Origin: a virus
Taxonomy: Duplodnaviria; Heunggongvirae; Uroviricota; Caudoviricetes
Direction: 5' to 3' (one strand)
IMG/VR virus record: IMGVR_UViG_3300021430_000416
Span: 18,435-82,434 of that record
Length of the DNA stretch: 64,000 bases
In this document: piece by piece, positions 2,543-52,421 of the stretch
How positions within the stretch are numbered: position 1 is the first letter of the stretch
Layout of the letters: each line of letters starts with the position of its first letter
Notes under the pieces: generated by a model
Seen by the model: the letters and a program-made list of their open reading frames with translations, nothing else
What the model was told of the DNA's origin: nothing
The model's database searches: none
Translations under genes and position numbers: made by a program

Positions 2543-3641
2543 TATATCCAACGCAACCTTTTCGTCAATTGTTGGGATAGGTCAAAAAGTAAAACGTGCA
2601 GCTAAGGAGAGTGGTGAACAATATTTAGAACTAAATCGTGGTGTAAATGCCGTTACTGAAATTGATTTGTCAAATGTGATGAATCAAGTTGATTTTAATT
2701 CAAAAGAGTTTCAGGTTTACGCACCGAACTTAGGTATCGAATCACTAAGAAAAGAAATTGTTAATGAATACTTTTATTCATCGAAAGATGACCCTGATTT
2801 CATTAACAATATTGCAATCACTCCCGGTGGGATGCCAGCACTTGATTTGGTGATTCAGTTATTGAATGTTGAGAATATATACTTCCCAAAATTTTATTGG
2901 GGGTCTTATTCTAAGATGGCAACAATAAGAAAGAAGTCATTTTCTTTTTATGATTCATTTTCTGATTTGGATTTCTCACAGTTAAATGAGTCGTCTTGTG
3001 TTTTCATTTGTAATCCAAATAACCCAACAGGAATCGCGTTAGACGATGTTTATCTAATGTCAACTATTGAGAGGATTAGTGAAACGGGTGCAATTGTTAT
3101 AGTTGATTGTCCATACAGAAAACTATTCTTTGAGGATGACTTTTTTGATATTGTTTCAAAGTTCCCGAATGTTATAATCACAGAATCATTCTCAAAGTGG
3201 ATTGGTTTATCAGGTTTAAGACTTGGGTTCATCTATTGTTCAAACAAAGATTTTAATTCCGAGTTAAACATTCGTTTACTATATGAATTCAATGCTGTTT
3301 CATCACCATCACAAATGATTGTTGAAAAGGTTATATCAACACCTGAAGGAAAATCCGCACACAATCAATTCAGGATGATTACGGTTGACAATATCACAAA
3401 AAATATTAATTATTTAGTGGACAACAACCTATTGGTAAATGAACTCTATCCTAACAGTAGACCAATTGGTATTTTTGCGGTGATAAACAAATCGGAAGAC
3501 TTTCTTTTCCAACATAAAATAGGTGCAGTTGGTTTAGACAAATTTGTTTACCACGATAAAGATTTTTGGTCATCCTATTCTAGAATTTGCGTATCAGTTC
3601 AACACGAACTATTCAAAAAATTCATAACAAATATAATTTAA
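2514..3641 (+). CDS. class I/II PLP-dependent aminotransferase
   Basis: FICNPNNPTG is the NPxNPTG motif. SFSKWIGLSGLRLGF carries the PLP-lysine SxSK...G.R.G motif. Confidence 0.7.
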   Translation: MEYRYNMKINISNATFSSIVGIGQKVKRAAKESGEQYLELNRGVNAVTEIDLSNVMNQVDFNSKEFQVYAPNLGIESLRKEIVNEYFYSSKDDPDFINNIAITPGGMPALDLVIQLLNVENIYFPKFYWGSYSKMATIRKKSFSFYDSFSDLDFSQLNESSCVFICNPNNPTGIALDDVYLMSTIERISETGAIVIVDCPYRKLFFEDDFFDIVSKFPNVIITESFSKWIGLSGLRLGFIYCSNKDFNSELNIRLLYEFNAVSSPSQMIVEKVISTPEGKSAHNQFRMITVDNITKNINYLVDNNLLVNELYPNSRPIGIFAVINKSEDFLFQHKIGAVGLDKFVYHDKDFWSSYSRICVSVQHELFKKFITNII

Positions 3642-3870: not shown

Positions 3871-4891
3871 CATGGAAAGAAAATTAGCAAGTGTAAGAAA
3901 AATTTTAAACCTATCACCAATCGAGGGTGCCGATAAAATCGAACTAGTAACAGTTGATGGATGGAAAGTTGTTGTTGCTAAAGATGTCGGTCACAAAGTT
4001 GGTGACTTGGTTATCTATTGTGAGATAGATTCATTTCTCCCGATTAGAGAAGAGTTTGAATTCTTACGTAAGAGTTCATACAAAAAAATGTCAGATGGGA
4101 CCGAAGGATTCAGATTGAAAACAATTAGACTTCGTGGACAAATTTCACAAGGTCTGATTTTACCAATGAGTGTCTTTGGTGATTTTGGATGGACCGCATA
4201 TGAGGGTCTTGATGTTACCGAAAGATTAGGTATCGTAAAATACGAACCACCAATCCCTGCGGAACTTGCTGGTAAGGTTAAAGGTATGTTCCCATCATTC
4301 ATTCCGAAAACGGATGAAGAAAGAATTCAGAACTTCACGAATGAATATGATGGTTGGAAATTACAATCTAAACATCAATTCTACGTAACCGAAAAGTTGG
4401 ATGGTTCATCATCAACATTCTACATTAACAATGGTGAGTTCGGTGTATGTTCACGTAATTTGGAATTACTAGAGACCGAAGGAAACACATTTTGGAAAGT
4501 TGCTCGTGAACTTGACCTTGAAAATAAAATGAAATCTTTAGGTAAAAACATTGCACTACAAGGTGAATTAATTGGTGAAGGTATTCAAGGTAACCCATAT
4601 AAAATAAAGGGACAAACTGTTAAGTTTTACACAGGGTTCGACATTGATGAGTACCGAAGACTTACCTTACCTGAATTCGTTTCATTAATTAGTAGTTTAG
4701 ATTTACAATGTGTACCGATTTTGGATGATAACTTCATGTTACCATCAACAATCGAAGACATGTTGAAATATGCTGATAATAAGTCAGTATTAAATCCCGA
4801 AACTAATCGTGAAGGTGTTGTAGTCCGTTCATTGGATTGTACCATTAGTTTTAAATCAATCAGTAACACATTTTTACTAGAAGAAAAATAA
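3860..4891 (+). CDS. ATP-dependent RNA ligase, DraRnl/Rnl5-like (N-terminal OB-like domain + nucleotidyltransferase domain)
   Basis: TEKLDGSSSTFY is ligase motif I (KxDG). GELIGEGIQGNPY and REGVVVRS are motif III/IV-like. The N-terminal GADKIELVTVDGWKVVVAK resembles the DraRnl OB-like module. Confidence 0.6.
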   Translation: MKNNMERKLASVRKILNLSPIEGADKIELVTVDGWKVVVAKDVGHKVGDLVIYCEIDSFLPIREEFEFLRKSSYKKMSDGTEGFRLKTIRLRGQISQGLILPMSVFGDFGWTAYEGLDVTERLGIVKYEPPIPAELAGKVKGMFPSFIPKTDEERIQNFTNEYDGWKLQSKHQFYVTEKLDGSSSTFYINNGEFGVCSRNLELLETEGNTFWKVARELDLENKMKSLGKNIALQGELIGEGIQGNPYKIKGQTVKFYTGFDIDEYRRLTLPEFVSLISSLDLQCVPILDDNFMLPSTIEDMLKYADNKSVLNPETNREGVVVRSLDCTISFKSISNTFLLEEK

Positions 4892-9444: not shown

Positions 9445-10947
9445 ATGTTTAGACCAAATTCACTTTTCTACACTGACGGATACAAAATCGGTCACAAAAG
9501 AATGTTAGCTAAAGGTACAACACGTTTGTACGGAACATGGATTCCACGTAGCATCAAGTACGCACCAAAGGGTGTTAAGAAAATTGTATCATTCGGACAA
9601 CAACTTGTTGTTAAGTGGTTACACGATGAGTTCCAAGAGAACTTCTTTAATCAACCAATTGAAGTTGCTGAAAGATTCGGAAAAGATATGTCAATGTATC
9701 TTGGTATGGATTATGATGCATCACACTTCGTTGAGTTACACAAATTAGGTTACTTACCTATCCGTATCAAATCATTACCTGAAGGTATTGAAACAAATCC
9801 AAATGTTCCTCACATGACATTCATTAATACCGTTGATGGATTTGCGTGGTTGACATTATATTTGGAAACCATCATTAGTTCATTGTCATGGAAACCTTCA
9901 ACCTCAGCAACAATTGCTCTACAATACAGACGTAATGTTGTTGAATGGGTGATGAAAACCGACCCAGCTAACGCTTGGTTAATCCCTTTCCTTTGTCATG
10001 ACTTCTCGGCTCGTGGATTAAGTCCATGGGATATGTTATCAAGTGGTCTTGGACACGCATCATCATTCTTGGGTTCTGACACAATCATTTGTATCCCCGG
10101 TGCTCGTTACTTCTACAACGAACCTGAAGACCAAGTTTCAATCTACTCTGTGAATGCGTCAGAACACTCAGTATCGACAACTAAAATCTTTACTGTTGGT
10201 GAACAACAAATGATTGCTGATTGGTTGGAAGAGTTCCCTAAAGGAATCCTGTCAATTGTGTCCGACACATTTGACTTGTGGAAGTTGATTACCGAATACT
10301 TACCGGCAAACAAAGAAGCTATTATGGCTCGTGACGGTAAATTGGTAATTCGTCCTGACTCAGGTGACCCTGTAGATATTATCTGCGGAAAACCTGATGA
10401 ATCTGGTGTTTTCAATGACCAAGACTACGCAAAGGCATCTAAAAGTGGGTCACCTGAGCAAAAGGGTGTTATCGAATTACTTTGGGACATCTTTGGTGGT
10501 ACAATCAACGAACAAGGTTACAAAGTTCTTGACCCACACATCGGAGCAATTTATGGTGATTCAATCACATTAGACCGTCAATTAGAAATCTACAAAAGAT
10601 TAGAAGCAAAAGGATTTGCATCAACAAACATCGTGTTAGGTGTTGGTTCATTCACTTACCAAATGAATACCCGTGACACATTAGGTTTCGCAGCCAAAGG
10701 TGCTTGGTTTGAGGTTGAGGAGAACAATACCAAAGTTGGTTACGATATCTACAAAGACCCTGTAACTGATGATGGTACTAAGAAGTCTTTGAAAGGTTTG
10801 ATTTGTGTTACTGAAAACCATGAGGTGTTAACACAATGTACACCTGAACAAGAATCACAAGGTATTCTTCAAACGATTTATGAGAATGGACAGTTCCATA
10901 ATCAAATAACTTTAACTGAGGTTCGTGAACGTTTAAACAAACTTTAA
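9445..10947 (+). CDS. nadV: nicotinamide phosphoribosyltransferase family protein (NadV/NamPT homolog; alternatively a NARP1 Namat-type enzyme)
   Basis: FYTDGYKIGH (TDSYK motif), YSVNASEHS, IVSDTFD, VIRPDSGDP and IYKDPV all match conserved NAMPT blocks. Confidence 0.9.
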   Translation: MFRPNSLFYTDGYKIGHKRMLAKGTTRLYGTWIPRSIKYAPKGVKKIVSFGQQLVVKWLHDEFQENFFNQPIEVAERFGKDMSMYLGMDYDASHFVELHKLGYLPIRIKSLPEGIETNPNVPHMTFINTVDGFAWLTLYLETIISSLSWKPSTSATIALQYRRNVVEWVMKTDPANAWLIPFLCHDFSARGLSPWDMLSSGLGHASSFLGSDTIICIPGARYFYNEPEDQVSIYSVNASEHSVSTTKIFTVGEQQMIADWLEEFPKGILSIVSDTFDLWKLITEYLPANKEAIMARDGKLVIRPDSGDPVDIICGKPDESGVFNDQDYAKASKSGSPEQKGVIELLWDIFGGTINEQGYKVLDPHIGAIYGDSITLDRQLEIYKRLEAKGFASTNIVLGVGSFTYQMNTRDTLGFAAKGAWFEVEENNTKVGYDIYKDPVTDDGTKKSLKGLICVTENHEVLTQCTPEQESQGILQTIYENGQFHNQITLTEVRERLNKL

Positions 10948-13434: not shown

Positions 13435-14358
13435 ATGGCAGAAGTATTAAACTTAGTCAACCCAAATGACACCTTATCTTTCAAGTATGAGATAAGTAGA
13501 TTCCCCGATGGGCAACAATCGTTACGATTGATTGAAGAGGGGTATAACACCTTTCACTCACTCAAAGATAATCCATACGGAATAACAATCAAATCACGTT
13601 TAAATGATTTCCGTGATTTGGAAATTATCATATGTGCAACACAAGCACTTAAAGAAGTTGGTGTCCAAAGAATCAGATTATATATTCCATATTGTACCGG
13701 AGCAAGAAGTGACCGTAAATTTATGGAGGGTGGAATTAATTATGTGAAACACGTAATCGCACCAATCATCAATTCACAAGGTTATGAACAGGTGATAATT
13801 ATGGACCCACATTCGGATGTTCTTGAAGCTTGCATCAACAACTTCGTTAAGGTTGATAACATTAGACTTGCGGAATTCACATTCAAAGATTATTTCTTAT
13901 CAAAAGGATTTGAAACTTGGTCAAATAGTAACTTTCAAAATGTTCGTTTGGTGTCACCCGATGCTGGCGCATTGAAGAAAGTGTTCCATGTTGCTGATAA
14001 ATTTGGTTATAAAAACGATATTGTTATTGCATCAAAACATAGAAATCTTGAAACTGGTAAAATTGATTTTACCAACGTACCTATGTCATTAAATGATGCG
14101 GATAAGGATGTGTTTATTTTCGACGACATTGGGGATGGTTTTGGTACATTTATAAACATCGCAAATGAAATTGAAGAAAAAAGAAAATTATCAAGTGATG
14201 TTCATCCATCACAACACGGAAAAAATTATTTGGTTGTCACACATTCAATACAAGAGATTGGTTTAAAAAGAGCATTAAATGTTTTTGATAAAATCTACAC
14301 CACAAATTCTATTAACGATTGGGAAATAGAGAATGTTGTTGTTTTAAATGTCTTTTAA
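13435..14358 (+). CDS. prs: ribose-phosphate pyrophosphokinase (PRPP synthetase) family protein, divergent (Prs or ADPR-pyrophosphokinase-like)
   Basis: YIPYCTGARSDRK matches PRS VIPYfGYARQDRK. IIMDPHSD, VSPDAGALKK and DDIGDGFGT match the PRPP-binding loop. The N-terminal FPDGQ region is divergent. Confidence 0.75.
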   Translation: MAEVLNLVNPNDTLSFKYEISRFPDGQQSLRLIEEGYNTFHSLKDNPYGITIKSRLNDFRDLEIIICATQALKEVGVQRIRLYIPYCTGARSDRKFMEGGINYVKHVIAPIINSQGYEQVIIMDPHSDVLEACINNFVKVDNIRLAEFTFKDYFLSKGFETWSNSNFQNVRLVSPDAGALKKVFHVADKFGYKNDIVIASKHRNLETGKIDFTNVPMSLNDADKDVFIFDDIGDGFGTFINIANEIEEKRKLSSDVHPSQHGKNYLVVTHSIQEIGLKRALNVFDKIYTTNSINDWEIENVVVLNVF

Positions 14359-18120: not shown

Positions 18121-18723
18121 ATGGGTGCGGACATTCACGTTTTCTTAGAAAAGAAAACCACAATCAACAACGAATCTAAGTGGGTCAACATAGACTACTG
18201 GCAATTAAATCCATACTATGACGGTGTGGATGAGTACGAAAAAGAATACGACCACGTACCGGTTTATAGTGGTCGTGATTACGAACTATTCAACCTACTC
18301 GCGGGAGTGAGAGGTTCGGGTAATGGTATGGTTGATGAACCTAGAGGTTTACCTGAAGATGTTTCGGAAGCAACAAAGAAAGAATCGGACAGATGGAGTT
18401 CCGATGGTCACACACATTCTCACTTTACTCTATTTGAATTAAAAGAGTATTTGGAAAAGAATCCAACAACTGTATATGGTGGAATGGTTACACCTGAAGA
18501 TGCCGAAAAAATTGATAAGGGTGAAGGTACACCTAATTCATGGGCAGGATGGGTTAGTGATAGTTTAGGTTGGGTATATAGAGATTGGTTAGAACCATCA
18601 CCACTTAATAGAATTGTTAATAAAATAAACGAGAGATTTAAGGATGAATTTTATATTTATGATGATAATAGACATCCTGAAAAAGAAAAATCAATAAGAA
18701 TCGTTTTTTGGTTTGACAACTAA
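18121..18723 (+). CDS. hypothetical protein of the MG(A/L)D(I/M)(H/Y) N-terminal family
   Basis: Starts MGADIHVFLEKK. Compare MGLDIYLYRY at 11205 and MGLDMYLHKK at 52967(-). Confidence 0.5.
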   Translation: MGADIHVFLEKKTTINNESKWVNIDYWQLNPYYDGVDEYEKEYDHVPVYSGRDYELFNLLAGVRGSGNGMVDEPRGLPEDVSEATKKESDRWSSDGHTHSHFTLFELKEYLEKNPTTVYGGMVTPEDAEKIDKGEGTPNSWAGWVSDSLGWVYRDWLEPSPLNRIVNKINERFKDEFYIYDDNRHPEKEKSIRIVFWFDN

Positions 18724-32353: not shown

Positions 32354-33547
32354 ATGGAAAATCAAGTAAAAAACATCATTAAGATTGTCGTAGTTGCGGT
32401 TTTAGCAATCACTACACTGTTCGTAGCCCCAAAATTATTCGAGGACGTGGATGCCGGTGAAGTTGTAATCATCCAAGACCCGTTTGATGGTGAACTACAC
32501 GTTAACACAGAACCTGGTTTTGTTTGGCAAGGTGGTGGACGAGCGACTCACTATCGTAAATCAAATCAGTTTTGGTTCTCAGCACCTACTGAAGAAGGTC
32601 AACCAAACTTATCAATCCCTGTAAAATGGAATGACGGTGGTCACGCATCTATCTCGGGTTCTGTTCGTTATGACCTACCTACCGACCAAGTGAGTTTAAT
32701 TAAGATTCACTCAATCTTCGGTTCACAAGAAGCATTGGAAACTCAATTAATTAAAACAAACATTGAGAAGGCAATCTACATGACAGGTCCACTTATGACA
32801 TCTAAAGAATCATACGCAGAAAAACGTAACGATTTGATTTTCTACATCGAAGACCAAGCATCTCGTGGTGTGTATAAAACAAAACAGATTGAGGTGAAAG
32901 AAGTTGATGCACTTACTAACGAAGAAAAGTTGGTGACTAAAGTTGAGATTGTTGAGAAGACACCGGGTCAACCTATTCGTCAGGAAGAATCACCAATTAA
33001 ATCTTATGGTGTTCGTTTATATAACATCTCAATCAACGGCATCACCTATGATAAAGCAGTTGAGAAACAAATCCAAACTCAACAACAAGCAATCATGAAC
33101 GTACAGACCGCTATCGCAAACGCTAAGAAAGCAGAACAAGACGCTATCACCATTGCTAAACAAGGTGAGGCTGAAGCAGCAAAAGCTAAGTGGGAACAAG
33201 AGGTTATCAAGGCTAAGATGGTGACTGAAGCTGAAGCGAAACGTAAAGTTGCTGAAGAAGATGTTAAAACCGCTGAATTAAACAAACGTCGTGACATCCT
33301 TGAAGGTGAGGGTATTGCAGCTAAGAAAAGATTGGTGATGCAGGCGGACGGTGCATTGGAACAAAAACTTGCGGCTTGGAAATTTGCCGAAGAAAAGAAA
33401 TGGGATGCATTCTCTAAATTCTCAGGTAATATGGTTCCTCTTTATCAATCAGGTAATGGTAGTGGTAACAACAACGCCATGAATTGGATGGAGATTATGG
33501 GAATGAAAGCAGCTAAGGATTTAAACTTAGACCTTAAAGCGAAGTAA
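32354..33547 (+). CDS. SPFH/band-7 (prohibitin/HflK-like) membrane protein
   Basis: N-terminal TM helix. GEVVIIQDPFDGELHV..PGF is an SPFH core. The C-terminus is an Ala/Lys/Glu-rich coiled coil typical of HflK/C. Confidence 0.65.
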   Translation: MENQVKNIIKIVVVAVLAITTLFVAPKLFEDVDAGEVVIIQDPFDGELHVNTEPGFVWQGGGRATHYRKSNQFWFSAPTEEGQPNLSIPVKWNDGGHASISGSVRYDLPTDQVSLIKIHSIFGSQEALETQLIKTNIEKAIYMTGPLMTSKESYAEKRNDLIFYIEDQASRGVYKTKQIEVKEVDALTNEEKLVTKVEIVEKTPGQPIRQEESPIKSYGVRLYNISINGITYDKAVEKQIQTQQQAIMNVQTAIANAKKAEQDAITIAKQGEAEAAKAKWEQEVIKAKMVTEAEAKRKVAEEDVKTAELNKRRDILEGEGIAAKKRLVMQADGALEQKLAAWKFAEEKKWDAFSKFSGNMVPLYQSGNGSGNNNAMNWMEIMGMKAAKDLNLDLKAK

Positions 33548-33599
33548 TAAATATGGGTGTTGTTACCCTTGGTTACGACCAAAAATAAAAACAAAAGTT

Positions 33600-33624
33600 G
33601 GGGAGACTATTCTCCCCAATATTT
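33600..33624 (+). terminator. rho-independent terminator after the SPFH gene
   Basis: GGGGAGA-ctat-TCTCCCC hairpin followed by a T-rich tract. Confidence 0.5.
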
Positions 33625-34345
33625 CCCCGATTGTCGGTCAGTCCTAAACACGGTGTTCGAGTCACCATAAAAACGGTAGTGTTGCGGATGGTAGGTTCGA
33701 GTCCTATGTCGGGGGCAAACCTCAGAAGTAATTAATCTGAGACTGAGTGATTCGAAGCACTCGATTGGTTATGGTGTATTGGGCACAGTAGAACGGAGTA
33801 CCGACAGTTCACATGAGGACGGGGAAAGGGGATACGGGATTGGGTTCGACTCCCTTTAATCAACTAAAGACCCCACAATTGACGGACGTACTCATCTGTC
33901 ATGGTGTGTGAACCCGGCATGAAGGCTCCGGGGCTATGGGGGAGGCTACACAAAAAGTGAAACTCACATAATCTCTAATAAACGGGGTTAACTGATTTGG
34001 GGAAGTTCAATCAGGTGTGTTGGAATCGAAACCATGAGTTCCTCATTATGGGTTGAGAGGGTTAGGGACTTTAATTAGTCGTGTTGTAATCCACAAGTCG
34101 TAAAGATACTGAACAACTTTACGGTACACACTCTTCTTCCGAGTGAGACTCCCACGTAACTTTGGGGGTAGGGTGAAGATGTTCTGAGGGTATCCCTGAA
34201 AGATGGGAGAGAGTAGAGACCTATCGTGGATGGTTACTAAGTCTTAACGAATCTTGAGACTATCGGTAGGGATATTATGTCGCCAAATATAACTTTCAAA
34301 AGGTTCTCCCAAAATGGCGTGGGGATGGTTCAGGACCTTTTTTTA
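33625..34345 (+). ncRNA. candidate large structured non-coding RNA (class unknown) with an embedded tRNA-like T-arm/acceptor motif
   Basis: About 720 nt with no ORF of 60 aa or more on either strand. Locally much more G+C-rich than the flanks. Contains several GTTCGAGTC / GTTCGACTC T-loop hairpins and many G-rich helices, and ends in a T7 run at about 34338. Confidence 0.4.
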
Positions 34346-34358
34346 CATTAACCTTAAT

Positions 34359-34790
34359 ATGAAAAAACAATTTATAAAAGACTTACCAATTTACCTAAAT
34401 GGGTTTGCAGTTGGATTTATATTTTGGAGTCTCCCGAAGTACGATATAATAAGTATATTAATGTACATTCTATCAATGGTGACTTTCTTTTGGTACGGAA
34501 AAACTTTAACCAAAAAAGAAGAAGGGAGATTCATACCAAGAAAGTACAGAATATTCAATGTTGATGTTTTCAACGAATGGTTTAATGATAAAGAGAACGG
34601 TGCGGTTTATGCTAACTCCGGCATTTTCCTAAGATTGGATAAACTTTCAATCTCACACATCGAAGATTATTTAGTTAAATGTCACGGGTTGGAATTATCC
34701 AATTGGGATATTGATGAGGATGTGAGAAATTTCTACGAGGAAATTAGAAAAGACTGGTTAAACAAACTTAATCAAAACGAAACAAAATAA
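34359..34790 (+). CDS. hypothetical membrane protein
   Basis: Start taken at MKKQF. The upstream in-frame extension overlaps the ncRNA/terminator region. Confidence 0.5.
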   Translation: MKKQFIKDLPIYLNGFAVGFIFWSLPKYDIISILMYILSMVTFFWYGKTLTKKEEGRFIPRKYRIFNVDVFNEWFNDKENGAVYANSGIFLRLDKLSISHIEDYLVKCHGLELSNWDIDEDVRNFYEEIRKDWLNKLNQNETK

Positions 34791-37805: not shown

Positions 37806-37883
37806 TGGTCAGGTGGTGAATGGTAACACAACTCGCGGTGTACACAAAGGGGTGAAAATGCAGGTTCGAATCCTGTCTTGACC
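37806..37883 (+). tRNA. tRNA-like gene (no encoded CCA); anticodon arm not confidently folded by eye
   Basis: 7-bp acceptor stem GGTCAGG/CTTGACC. U8. D-arm with the GG loop. Canonical T-arm GCAGG-TTCGAAT-CCTGT. Discriminator A. The central 30 nt do not form an obvious 5-bp/7-nt anticodon hairpin. Confidence 0.45.
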
Positions 37884-37901
37884 ACAATAAAAAAATAAAC
37901 C

Positions 37902-52280: not shown

Positions 52281-52359
52281 GTAGTCGGGATAGGACTCGA
52301 ACCTATATTAAGATGCCCTTATGGACTTACACTTTTCCTATTCCATTAGAAGACCCGAC
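52281..52359 (-). tRNA. tRNA-like gene embedded between the promoter and the start codon of the downstream gene; anticodon arm not canonical by eye
   Basis: On the minus strand: GGTCGGG acceptor, U8, D-arm TTCT/AGGA with the AATGGAAT loop, T-arm ATAGG-TTCGAGT-CCTAT, acceptor 3' CCCGACT, discriminator A, no CCA. It lies immediately after a TATCTTTG -7 box. Confidence 0.45.
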
Positions 52360-52421
52360 CATTTGTGATACAAAGATAAAACAGGGATACCATTTTACCA
52401 AACAATACCCCTGTTTTTTTA

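Follow-up and report, generated by a model that had tools for sequence, protein, structure and literature searches.

The window analyzed here is a 64,000-nucleotide (nt) stretch of the Caudoviricetes virus record IMGVR_UViG_3300021430_000416 (positions 18,435 to 82,434), and the region in question lies between an SPFH gene, with its stop codon at 33547, and a co-oriented protein gene at 34359-34790. In a greedy map of open reading frames (ORFs), this is the largest ORF-free gap of the window (33548-34313, 766 nt), the next largest being 339, 296, and 291 nt, and the longest ORFs within it are 45 and 43 amino acids (aa), in agreement with an original prediction that no ORF of 60 aa or more is present. 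The abrupt switch to G/C-rich sequence that was part of that prediction is also evident, with a GC content of 0.46 to 0.49 at 33600-34200 versus 0.31 to 0.39 on both flanks. The T-loop motif GTTCGANTC occurs six times in the window (1.55 copies expected; 0 of 100 shuffles reach six), and the three copies within 200 nt of each other, at 33655, 33695, and 33844, account for the three T-loop sequences originally described. The hairpin noted after the SPFH gene is a G+C-rich inverted repeat, GGGGAGA/TCTCCCC (arms 33593-33606 and 33611-33624, assigned to neither strand), which parts the protein gene from the sequences that follow; it is terminator-like on the minus strand only in a consensus scan, AATATTT follows it on the plus strand, and read-through past it is plausible. 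At the other end, the predicted T7 run is at 34341-34347, 11 nt before the next start codon (34359). The region is organized as three conserved plus-strand modules rather than as the single RNA of about 720 nt first proposed: the first ~320 nt are separate modules, which in other phages lie 0 to 2.2 kb 5' of the large RNA or 3' of it, and the large RNA itself is ~483 nt. The region is very probably a phage RNA island with three plus-strand noncoding RNA genes, the ~483-nt RNA belonging to a widespread and apparently uncatalogued family.

The large structured RNA (33866-34348, plus strand) is conserved from (U)AAGACCCCAC to a terminal hairpin and U-run, and the sequence 5' of this start (33866/33867) differs among loci. 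Homologues were detected with nhmmer profiles, and the family hidden Markov model (HMM), derived from alignment A3, matches the window at 33849-34349 (HMM positions 5-488 of 494; 397.6 bits). It also matches 148 other loci, with 105 full-length matches and 91 distinct sequences, of which 64 representatives sharing less than 93% identity were aligned (A4); as extracted, these span 438 to 574 nt with ~30 nt of flank included, and the RNA itself is 0.41 to 0.55 kb. The near-invariant 19-mer GGGTGAAGATGTTCTGAGG retrieves 18 IMG/VR contigs, and a 5' pattern that is independent of this 19-mer, AAGACCCCAC and GGCTATGGGGGA separated by 48 to 64 nt, retrieves at least 120 metagenome contigs; the retrieved contigs are mostly from lakes, as judged by record name with no sample metadata used, and some are larger than 300 kb. 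A blastn comparison of the region and of a consensus-like member with 50,697 deposited phage records gave no match, and a 19-mer search of the GTDB species genomes gave no evidence of prophage or cellular copies, its two matches being chance occurrences in metagenome-assembled genomes of 57 to 58% GC. Contigs encoding SPFH relatives at 85 to 95% identity, identified in a large protein collection, carry the region: window positions 33553-34343 are 79.7% identical to L027/L028 over 853 nt, and the region is 79% identical to L024 over 797 nt. Nucleotide conservation of the RNA is similar to that of the adjoining SPFH gene (0.82/0.83 versus 0.88/0.86), and compensatory changes are visible already in a three-way alignment. 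In L031 to L034, pieces of the region lie upstream of the SPFH gene in a 2.9-kb gene-free stretch. At 21 IMG/VR loci with SPFH relatives at 40 to 75% aa identity, the region is missing and synteny is lacking, and the region is also absent from L023, the sole and closest homologue locus of the downstream protein. The window copy has all of the elements by which the family was provisionally delimited, namely (U)AAGACCCCAC, GGCUAUGGGGGAGG, the hub GGGUGAAGAUGUUCUGAGG, GGAUGGUUACUA, the helix set, and the 3' pseudoknotted hairpin.

The final structural model, based on the 64 representatives, contains 114 pairs in 21 helices. Standard pairs fill 96.8% of the cells in the model versus 34 to 46% with partners slid by one to three columns, and 76 of the 114 pairs are changed on both sides versus 24 to 33 when slid; the corresponding numbers of doubly changed cells are 692 versus 49 to 101, the covariation scores are 0.310 versus 0.04 to 0.08, and none of 500 shuffles reaches any structure measure. 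A first model, from RNAalifold on 18 sequences (30 of 81 pairs compensatory), was refined by screening all column pairs for stacked covariation and adding long-range helices. Its closing helix P1 (33870-73/34171-74), with changes that are never compensated and many nonpairing cells, was dropped, and helices 33913-20/34059-66, 33927-30/34049-52, and 33936-42/34040-46, which are never compensated on both sides, were replaced. All helices of the final model are canonical in the window sequence, helix 4 in a shifted register (33913-17/33928-32). Judged from these substitution patterns, the fold is upheld by selection, with about 16 nested helices, five supported pseudoknots, and one candidate pseudoknot. 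G-U pairs, which would be C-A on the opposite strand, are frequent, identifying the plus strand as the RNA strand, the same as for the neighboring tRNAs. Because related genomes show both conservation and abundant covariation, the possibility raised with the original prediction, of a region with neither in its relatives, is decided in favor of a structured RNA. With high confidence, phage tRNA islands contain a new, widespread, and strongly covarying family of RNAs of ~0.41 to 0.55 kb, the fold of which includes at least five pseudoknots.

All parts of the fold are on the plus strand. The RNA begins with a 5' hairpin domain (33874-33910; helices 33874-77/33907-10 and 33880-85/33896-901, with three of six pairs in helix 2 doubly changed), the loop of which forms pseudoknot 1 (PK1, helix 3) between 33890-93 (ACTC) and 34036-39 (GAGT). 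PK1 is 100% paired, and 21 sequences are changed on both sides at two of its pairs (ACUC/GAGU versus AUCC/GGAU). A short hairpin follows (33913-33932, helix 4; CCCGG/CCGGG in the window, consensus CUUGAA-GGC-UUCAAG), which is 96% paired with little variation, and then the invariant GGCUAUGGGGGAGG (33931-33944). An optional three-helix domain (33948-34035; helices 33965-69/34015-19, 33970-75/33984-89, and 33992-96/34010-14) is carried by ~20 of the 64 representatives, including the window, and 10 of 16 pairs in its helices 5 to 7 are doubly changed among 19 to 20 carriers. Next is a segment (34040-34093) in which the loop of hairpin 34040-44/34057-61 forms PK4 (34049-54/34088-93), with a hairpin, 34067-70/34077-80, in between; these helices (8, 9, and 10; three of five, four of six, and three of four pairs doubly changed) take the place of the RNAalifold helix 33936-42/34040-46.

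Three hairpins at 34097-34169 (34097-105/34117-125, 34129-33/34141-45, and 34148-54/34163-69; helices 11, 13, and 15) have seven of nine, three of five, and four of seven pairs doubly changed, and the first two contribute their loops to base pairing with the hub GGGUGAAGAUGUUCUGAGG (34170-34190), a near-invariant, single-stranded segment. These contacts are PK3 (34111-14 with GUUC at 34181-84; helix 12), which is 100% paired and changed from A-U to G-C in 26 sequences, and PK5 (34135-39 with GAAGA at 34175-79; helix 14), which is 86% paired with all five pairs doubly changed. A candidate PK6, GUAAC at 34156-60 with GUUAC at 34233-37, is invariant except in L158, where both sides change from C-G to U-A. 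The hub is followed by a short UCCC/GGGA hairpin (34193-34208, helix 16; four of four pairs doubly changed), on which most relatives carry a second optional insert of ~60 nt at 34196/34205 (A4 columns 389-471) that is absent from the window copy; both optional domains are inserted at hairpin tips. A domain at 34220-34270 containing the invariant GGAUGGUUACUA is closed by 34220-26/34264-70 with hairpin 34242-47/34254-59 inside (helices 17 and 18; six of seven and six of six pairs doubly changed, 98 to 99% paired). The 3' end (34281-34347) combines a pseudoknot with a terminator-like structure: PK2 joins CGCC at 34281-84 to GGCG at 34316-19 in the loop of the inner hairpin 34308-11/34320-23, and an outer stem, 34299-306/34333-340, precedes the T7 run, with four of four, six of eight, and two of four pairs doubly changed in helices 19, 20, and 21.

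The modules upstream of the large RNA include two tRNA-like units. Unit 1 (33625-33716, plus strand) is called as tRNA-Ser(cga) by ARAGORN, which gives the same drawing as the tRNA-like structure originally proposed for 33625-33715. It has a 7-bp acceptor (CCCCGAT/GTCGGGG) and a T-arm (GTAGG-TTCGAGT-CCTAT), and a second T-arm-like hairpin (GGTG-TTCGAGT-CACC) occupies the place of the anticodon arm; the anticodon stem has a C-A mismatch, the "anticodon loop" is T-loop-like, and the variable region of the ARAGORN drawing has no stem. The D-arm, which could not be formed when the structure was first drawn, is degenerate at 2 bp. Unit 1 has no match to the Rfam tRNA model RF00005 (threshold, 29 bits) even at an E value of ≤10, placing it outside that family. 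It is conserved in L024 and L027, where ARAGORN makes this call again, and in L059 a copy is located 3' of the large RNA.

The segment 33690-33864 is a separate conserved module of two hairpins, A and B, followed by unit 2. Hairpin A (33721-33741, plus strand; CCTCAGA..TCTGAGA/G) has a TAATTA palindrome in its loop and four of six pairs doubly changed, and hairpin B (33744-33763, plus strand; TGAGTG-ATTCGAAG-CACTCG) has three of six pairs with five to nine double changes. Unit 2 (33765-33864, plus strand) has an acceptor (TTGGTTA/TAATCAA), a D-arm (GTGT-ATTGG-GCAC), and a T-arm (GGG-TTCGACT-CCC), all of which are conserved in an alignment of 14 loci (A5), and a variable insert of 20 to 70 nt replaces the anticodon arm; the A5 consensus fold of hairpins A and B and unit 2 shows double changes in 13 of 30 pairs. 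Relaxed ARAGORN, which makes four weak calls in the region as a whole, has calls for unit 2 at 33765/33779-33864. In the window, unit 2 has no Rfam tRNA match at an E value of ≤10 and is not a cloverleaf tRNA, and a relative with a short insert (L031 2075-2145) scores 24.8 bits, below the 29-bit threshold. An exact 27-mer of unit 2 has no match in viral contigs. Elsewhere, the module is found directly 5' of the large RNA, 0.7 to 2.2 kb 5' of it with genuine tRNAs intervening, or 3' of it.

Units 1 and 2 resemble the tRNA-like processing handles and mimics of the mascRNA/MALAT1 3' end and the bacterial YrlA Y RNAs (PMC4201824) in keeping an acceptor and T-arm (with a D-arm as well in unit 2) and in having no normal anticodon arm. 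Their position coincides exactly with the boundary of a longer RNA, which would be expected were its ends defined by tRNA enzymes. No Rfam YrlA or mascRNA match is present at the units, the only matches being weak ones over true tRNAs elsewhere, and no Ro60 gene was seen. The units are probably non-decoding tRNA mimics serving as processing handles, and they may also have functions of their own.

Most copies of the large RNA lie in phage tRNA arrays. Sixteen loci containing it have 203 Rfam matches, almost all of them tRNAs and co-oriented with the large RNA; of the 64 representatives, a tRNA on the same strand lies no more than 1 kb away in 53 and begins at most a few nt from the 3' U-run in 32. 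Directly upstream, ~17 of the 64 have a T-arm and acceptor-like sequence, as does the window, ~20 have a 5' extension of ~60 nt (preceded in L041 by TATATTTG), and 14 have a TAnnTTTG box at a fixed position, -18 to -21 from AGACCCC. TAnnTTTG is the -7 element of Bacteroidota promoters. It is enriched in the window (119 copies versus 90 ± 9), and one form, TATCTTTG, is found on the minus strand in almost all of the gaps that precede the minus-strand genes at 52 to 63 kb; this enrichment and placement in gaps suggest that the phage host is likely a member of the Bacteroidota. The window also contains helicase, RNA ligase, nicotinamide phosphoribosyltransferase (NAMPT), and ribose-phosphate pyrophosphokinase (PRPP synthase) genes, which confirm that this is a large lytic phage.

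The large RNA is distinct from every Rfam family and is encoded on the tRNA strand. At gathering score, the only feature that Rfam 15 (4227 families) identifies in the whole window is a tRNA at 37807-37884. At an E value of ≤10, positions 33400-34500 have no tRNA, GOLLD, ROOL, RNase P, or intron match, and the sole relevant match is a 13-nt tmRNA fragment corresponding to the T-loop at 33842-33854 (10.5 bits versus a threshold of 47); ARAGORN also finds no tmRNA in the region. The large RNA is therefore not a member of any of the families suggested originally (GOLLD, ROOL, tmRNA, RNase P, and group I and II introns). The large RNA of eight other members is without an Rfam 15 match at an E value of ≤5, as is that of sixteen further loci at gathering score. 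Neither the window nor the members reach the gathering score of 150 bits for the GOLLD model (RF02032), and the ROOL covariance model (RF03087) has no match in the window, the eight members, or the sixteen loci. At an E value of ≤1, the L031 copy has no GOLLD match, and the only GOLLD on that contig is the canonical one, one of two found elsewhere on contigs with the large RNA (L031, 177 bits; L045, 322 bits); the family HMM finds nothing in two GOLLD regions at an E value of ≤10 with filters off (nhmmer). No description of the large RNA was found in the open-access literature, either by topic or by sequence motif; the class of large structured phage RNA that it represents is real and apparently new to the literature.

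The original description of the region as reminiscent of GOLLD and ROOL is apt for the size and ornateness of the RNA and for its tRNA-adjacent phage niche, but not for family membership. GOLLD and ROOL are large pseudoknotted phage RNAs near tRNA islands that were recently shown to form homo-oligomeric nanocages (14-mers or 8-mers; structures PDB 9MEE and 9MDS). ROOL, found in phages and prophages, is ~0.6 kb with numerous pseudoknots and an internal region that varies; it is believed to function independently of proteins and can reach very high levels (PMC12286853). Both GOLLD and the large RNA are phage-encoded, are found in lake metagenomes in or beside tRNA islands, sometimes directly after a tRNA, and are large and multi-pseudoknotted with variable inserts, and they co-occur rather than replace each other. 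The large RNA is about half the size of GOLLD, however (0.41 to 0.55 kb versus >0.8 kb), and the 483-nt RNA does not have the GOLLD layout of a universal 3' domain, a linker, and a variable 5' domain exceeding ~800 nt; its helix order differs from the Rfam GOLLD consensus structure, and it has no counterpart of the tRNA-bearing linker between the two GOLLD domains. Location in a tRNA island is common to both, yet this context alone is not sufficient for assignment to GOLLD. A AAGACCCC module shared with GOLLD is present in the L031 GOLLD only, not in the L045 GOLLD or the Rfam consensus, and was therefore rejected as a family link. The phage and tRNA-island niche, pseudoknots, and variable internal region are likewise shared with ROOL. 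ROOL is known from the rumen, Firmicutes, and similar sources, unlike the large RNA, which is mostly from JGI/ENA contigs taken as freshwater and is apparently tied to TAnnTTTG promoters.

There is only a slim chance that the large RNA is a highly divergent GOLLD or ROOL beyond the reach of the Rfam models. The common niche (PMC12286853), the ROOL-like size, the abundance of pseudoknots with variable inserts, and a CAAAGACCCCAACGGUAACGGA sequence that follows the embedded tRNA of the L031 GOLLD and resembles the start of the large RNA are all consistent with such an origin, but the model searches of the window and of the eight members, at E values of ≤10 and ≤5, are blank, as is the reciprocal search of the two GOLLD regions, helix order differs, the AAGACCCC resemblance does not extend to the L045 GOLLD, and canonical GOLLDs of 177 and 322 bits coexist on the same contigs. 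A catalytic role is a live alternative with a small but appreciable probability, and a ribozyme serving the RNA island (RNase P-like, processing, or ligating) in place of a scaffold or cage would be compatible with a new family. Most known bacterial RNAs of comparable size and pseudoknot density are ribozymes or ribonucleoprotein cores, the near-invariant single-stranded hub is tied by tertiary helices, the RNA is always among tRNA precursors that need processing, and the phage encodes an RNA ligase. Opposing this, models of RNase P, group I and II introns, and small ribozymes do not match the RNA, the RNase P consensus motifs CR-I and CR-V are not recognizable by eye, hosts already supply RNase P, and no flanking exon or cleavage-site signature is present.

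Decay of a tRNA gene cluster, leaving tRNA pseudogenes and functionless spacer, is very unlikely and is refuted for 33866-34348 by the covariation statistics, even though canonical tRNA arrays of related phages occupy the same place after SPFH (11 tRNAs at L031 5530-7658) and are similarly G+C-enriched and ORF-free. The three T-loop motifs, the four weak relaxed ARAGORN calls, and the failure of unit 1 against the Rfam tRNA model fit decay, but pseudogenes would not keep pseudoknots, and the 3' 483 nt are conserved in more than 140 contigs with 76 compensatory pairs and no cloverleaf. Unlike a tRNA array, the region contains no canonical tRNA according to Rfam, and two thirds of it is the non-tRNA large RNA; the units are themselves conserved with covariation, limiting decay at most to their decoding ability, and the degenerate tRNA cluster offered as an option in the original prediction describes the 5' third of the region and not the remainder. 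Placement between two co-oriented protein genes, with a terminator-like hairpin and T7 run 11 nt before a start codon and a family ORF (34314) overlapping the 3' hairpin of the large RNA, would suit a cis element, either a 3' untranslated region or terminator of the SPFH operon or a 5' leader or riboswitch of the 34359-34790 gene. This is highly improbable since the neighbors are not conserved: SPFH relatives at 40 to 75% identity and L023 lack the RNA, a tRNA gene comes next in half of the family, the RNA is upstream of SPFH in L031, no flanking protein family is common to more than 25 of 149 loci, and a promoter box of their own precedes many copies. TAG or TGA is recoded in some large uncultivated phages, and a protein gene masked by recoding or by frameshifts was raised with the original prediction, but its probability is negligible. 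All six frames of the gap have 9 to 17 stops, comprising all three kinds, with at least two stop types recurring in each, such that reassigning one stop codon opens no gene; the lengths of indels among homologues are not divisible by three, entire domains are present in some members and missing from others, and substitutions track base pairing, including strand-specific G-U pairs, rather than codon positions.

Several observations weigh against the interpretation as an RNA island with a large RNA of a new family. The whole-region minimum free energy is no more stable than that of shuffled sequences (z = +0.32 for the plus strand and -0.69 for the minus strand), so that the "hairpin-dense" character first attributed to the region is borne out by the comparative data and not by folding energy. 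The final model has no closing helix and no partners for AAGACCCC and GGCUAUGGGGGAGG, and the two motifs used for retrieval are invariant by construction. The window copy has no recognizable promoter, with no TAnnTTTG between 33548 and 33866, which makes its transcription dependent on read-through past the SPFH hairpin, and no conserved protein partner is encoded nearby. Transcript ends, stability, and abundance are predicted properties, and the sequence itself gives no hint of a particular biochemical function. Novelty is relative to Rfam 15 and the open-access literature; a catalogue of 10,006 viral RNA candidates (PMC10690425) was outside the comparison and might hold pieces of the family.

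The large RNA would be made either from its own TAnnTTTG-type promoter or within a tRNA-type polycistron, with the window copy probably transcribed by read-through from the SPFH unit. In the window, RNase P, RNase Z, or 3' trimming acting on unit 2 would free the 5' end of the large RNA. Its own hairpin and U-run would define the 3' end, except in phages where a tRNA follows directly, in which RNase P cleavage would do so. The product is envisaged as a compact, stable, trans-acting RNA particle in the translation/tRNA sphere during infection, which may act through self-assembly or by binding a host component; this placement is suggested by the genomic context, and the same is suspected for GOLLD and ROOL, which share the niche. 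A stable trans-acting particle released by tRNA-type processing is the best guess that the context affords. Taken further, the proposal that it is a third large ornate RNA class of phage tRNA islands beside GOLLD and ROOL, with a hub-and-spoke core and at least five pseudoknots, abundant in lake phages that probably infect Bacteroidota, possibly with its own assembly or catalysis, and delivered by tRNA-mimic processing handles, is slightly favored on balance.

Bacterial and phage RNAs of such size and complexity are rare, and nearly all of those solved are ribozymes, ribonucleoprotein cores, or, recently, self-assembling nanocages (GOLLD, ROOL, and OLE). If the interpretation is correct, an unrelated family co-occurring with GOLLD suggests that phage tRNA islands are a general home of large functional RNAs. 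The RNA is highly covarying and thus a well-constrained target, and at ~0.45 kb it offers a compact one for cryo-electron microscopy and for functional tests of such RNAs during infection. The flanking tRNA-like units provide a testable case of tRNA mimicry punctuating non-tRNA phage transcripts.

Other features of the RNA and its surroundings are of note. Self-complementary tracts are present in conserved loops, UAAUUA in hairpin A (33728-33733), UUAA (34071-34076), and ACGU (34154-34157), and could mediate kissing-loop self-association, although this is purely a lead. A ~131-aa acidic protein (C terminus ...ADEAMSEVGVI) ends 4 nt 5' of the RNA in L143, L067, L119, L163, and ~20 more loci; as a conserved partner it was rejected, being confined to one subclade and having no homologue in the window. 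The RNA ligase (PHROG 968), NAMPT, and PRPP synthase genes are at 3872-4891, 9445-10947, and 13435-14358, and their functions in tRNA repair and NAD+ salvage are often linked to counter-defense. The tRNA at 37807-37884 (plus strand; 41.1 bits with Rfam) is missed by ARAGORN; its sequence begins with GGTCAGGTGGTG, and its anticodon region is odd. Small ORFs occupy the ~3.4 kb between it and the large RNA, and roughly half of the other loci have a gene of this type immediately 3' of the large RNA ("...ACCTTTTTTTA TGGTCAGGTG"). An unannotated tRNA-like gene at 52283-52361 (minus strand), in a 163-nt intergenic gap, is missed by both ARAGORN and Rfam; it has an acceptor (GGTCGGG/CCCGACT) and a T-arm (TAGGTTCGAGTCCTA), and both a TATCTTTG box (52371-52378) and a terminator hairpin precede it. 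The 2.9-kb gene-free stretch of L031 (481-3418), a close relative, contains the canonical GOLLD (980-1478), the linker of which harbors a tRNA-Lys, several tRNAs and tRNA-like units, and the large-RNA homologue (2872-3345), together with further uncharacterized sequence, e.g., 1574-2000 and 2150-2545. Phage tmRNAs, a group I intron, and "freshwater-1" RNAs are encoded as well on contigs of the family (L041 13563-13958, L050 3881-4263, L045 8352-8575, L046 8418-8479, and L039 996-1056), the islands of which are very RNA-rich.

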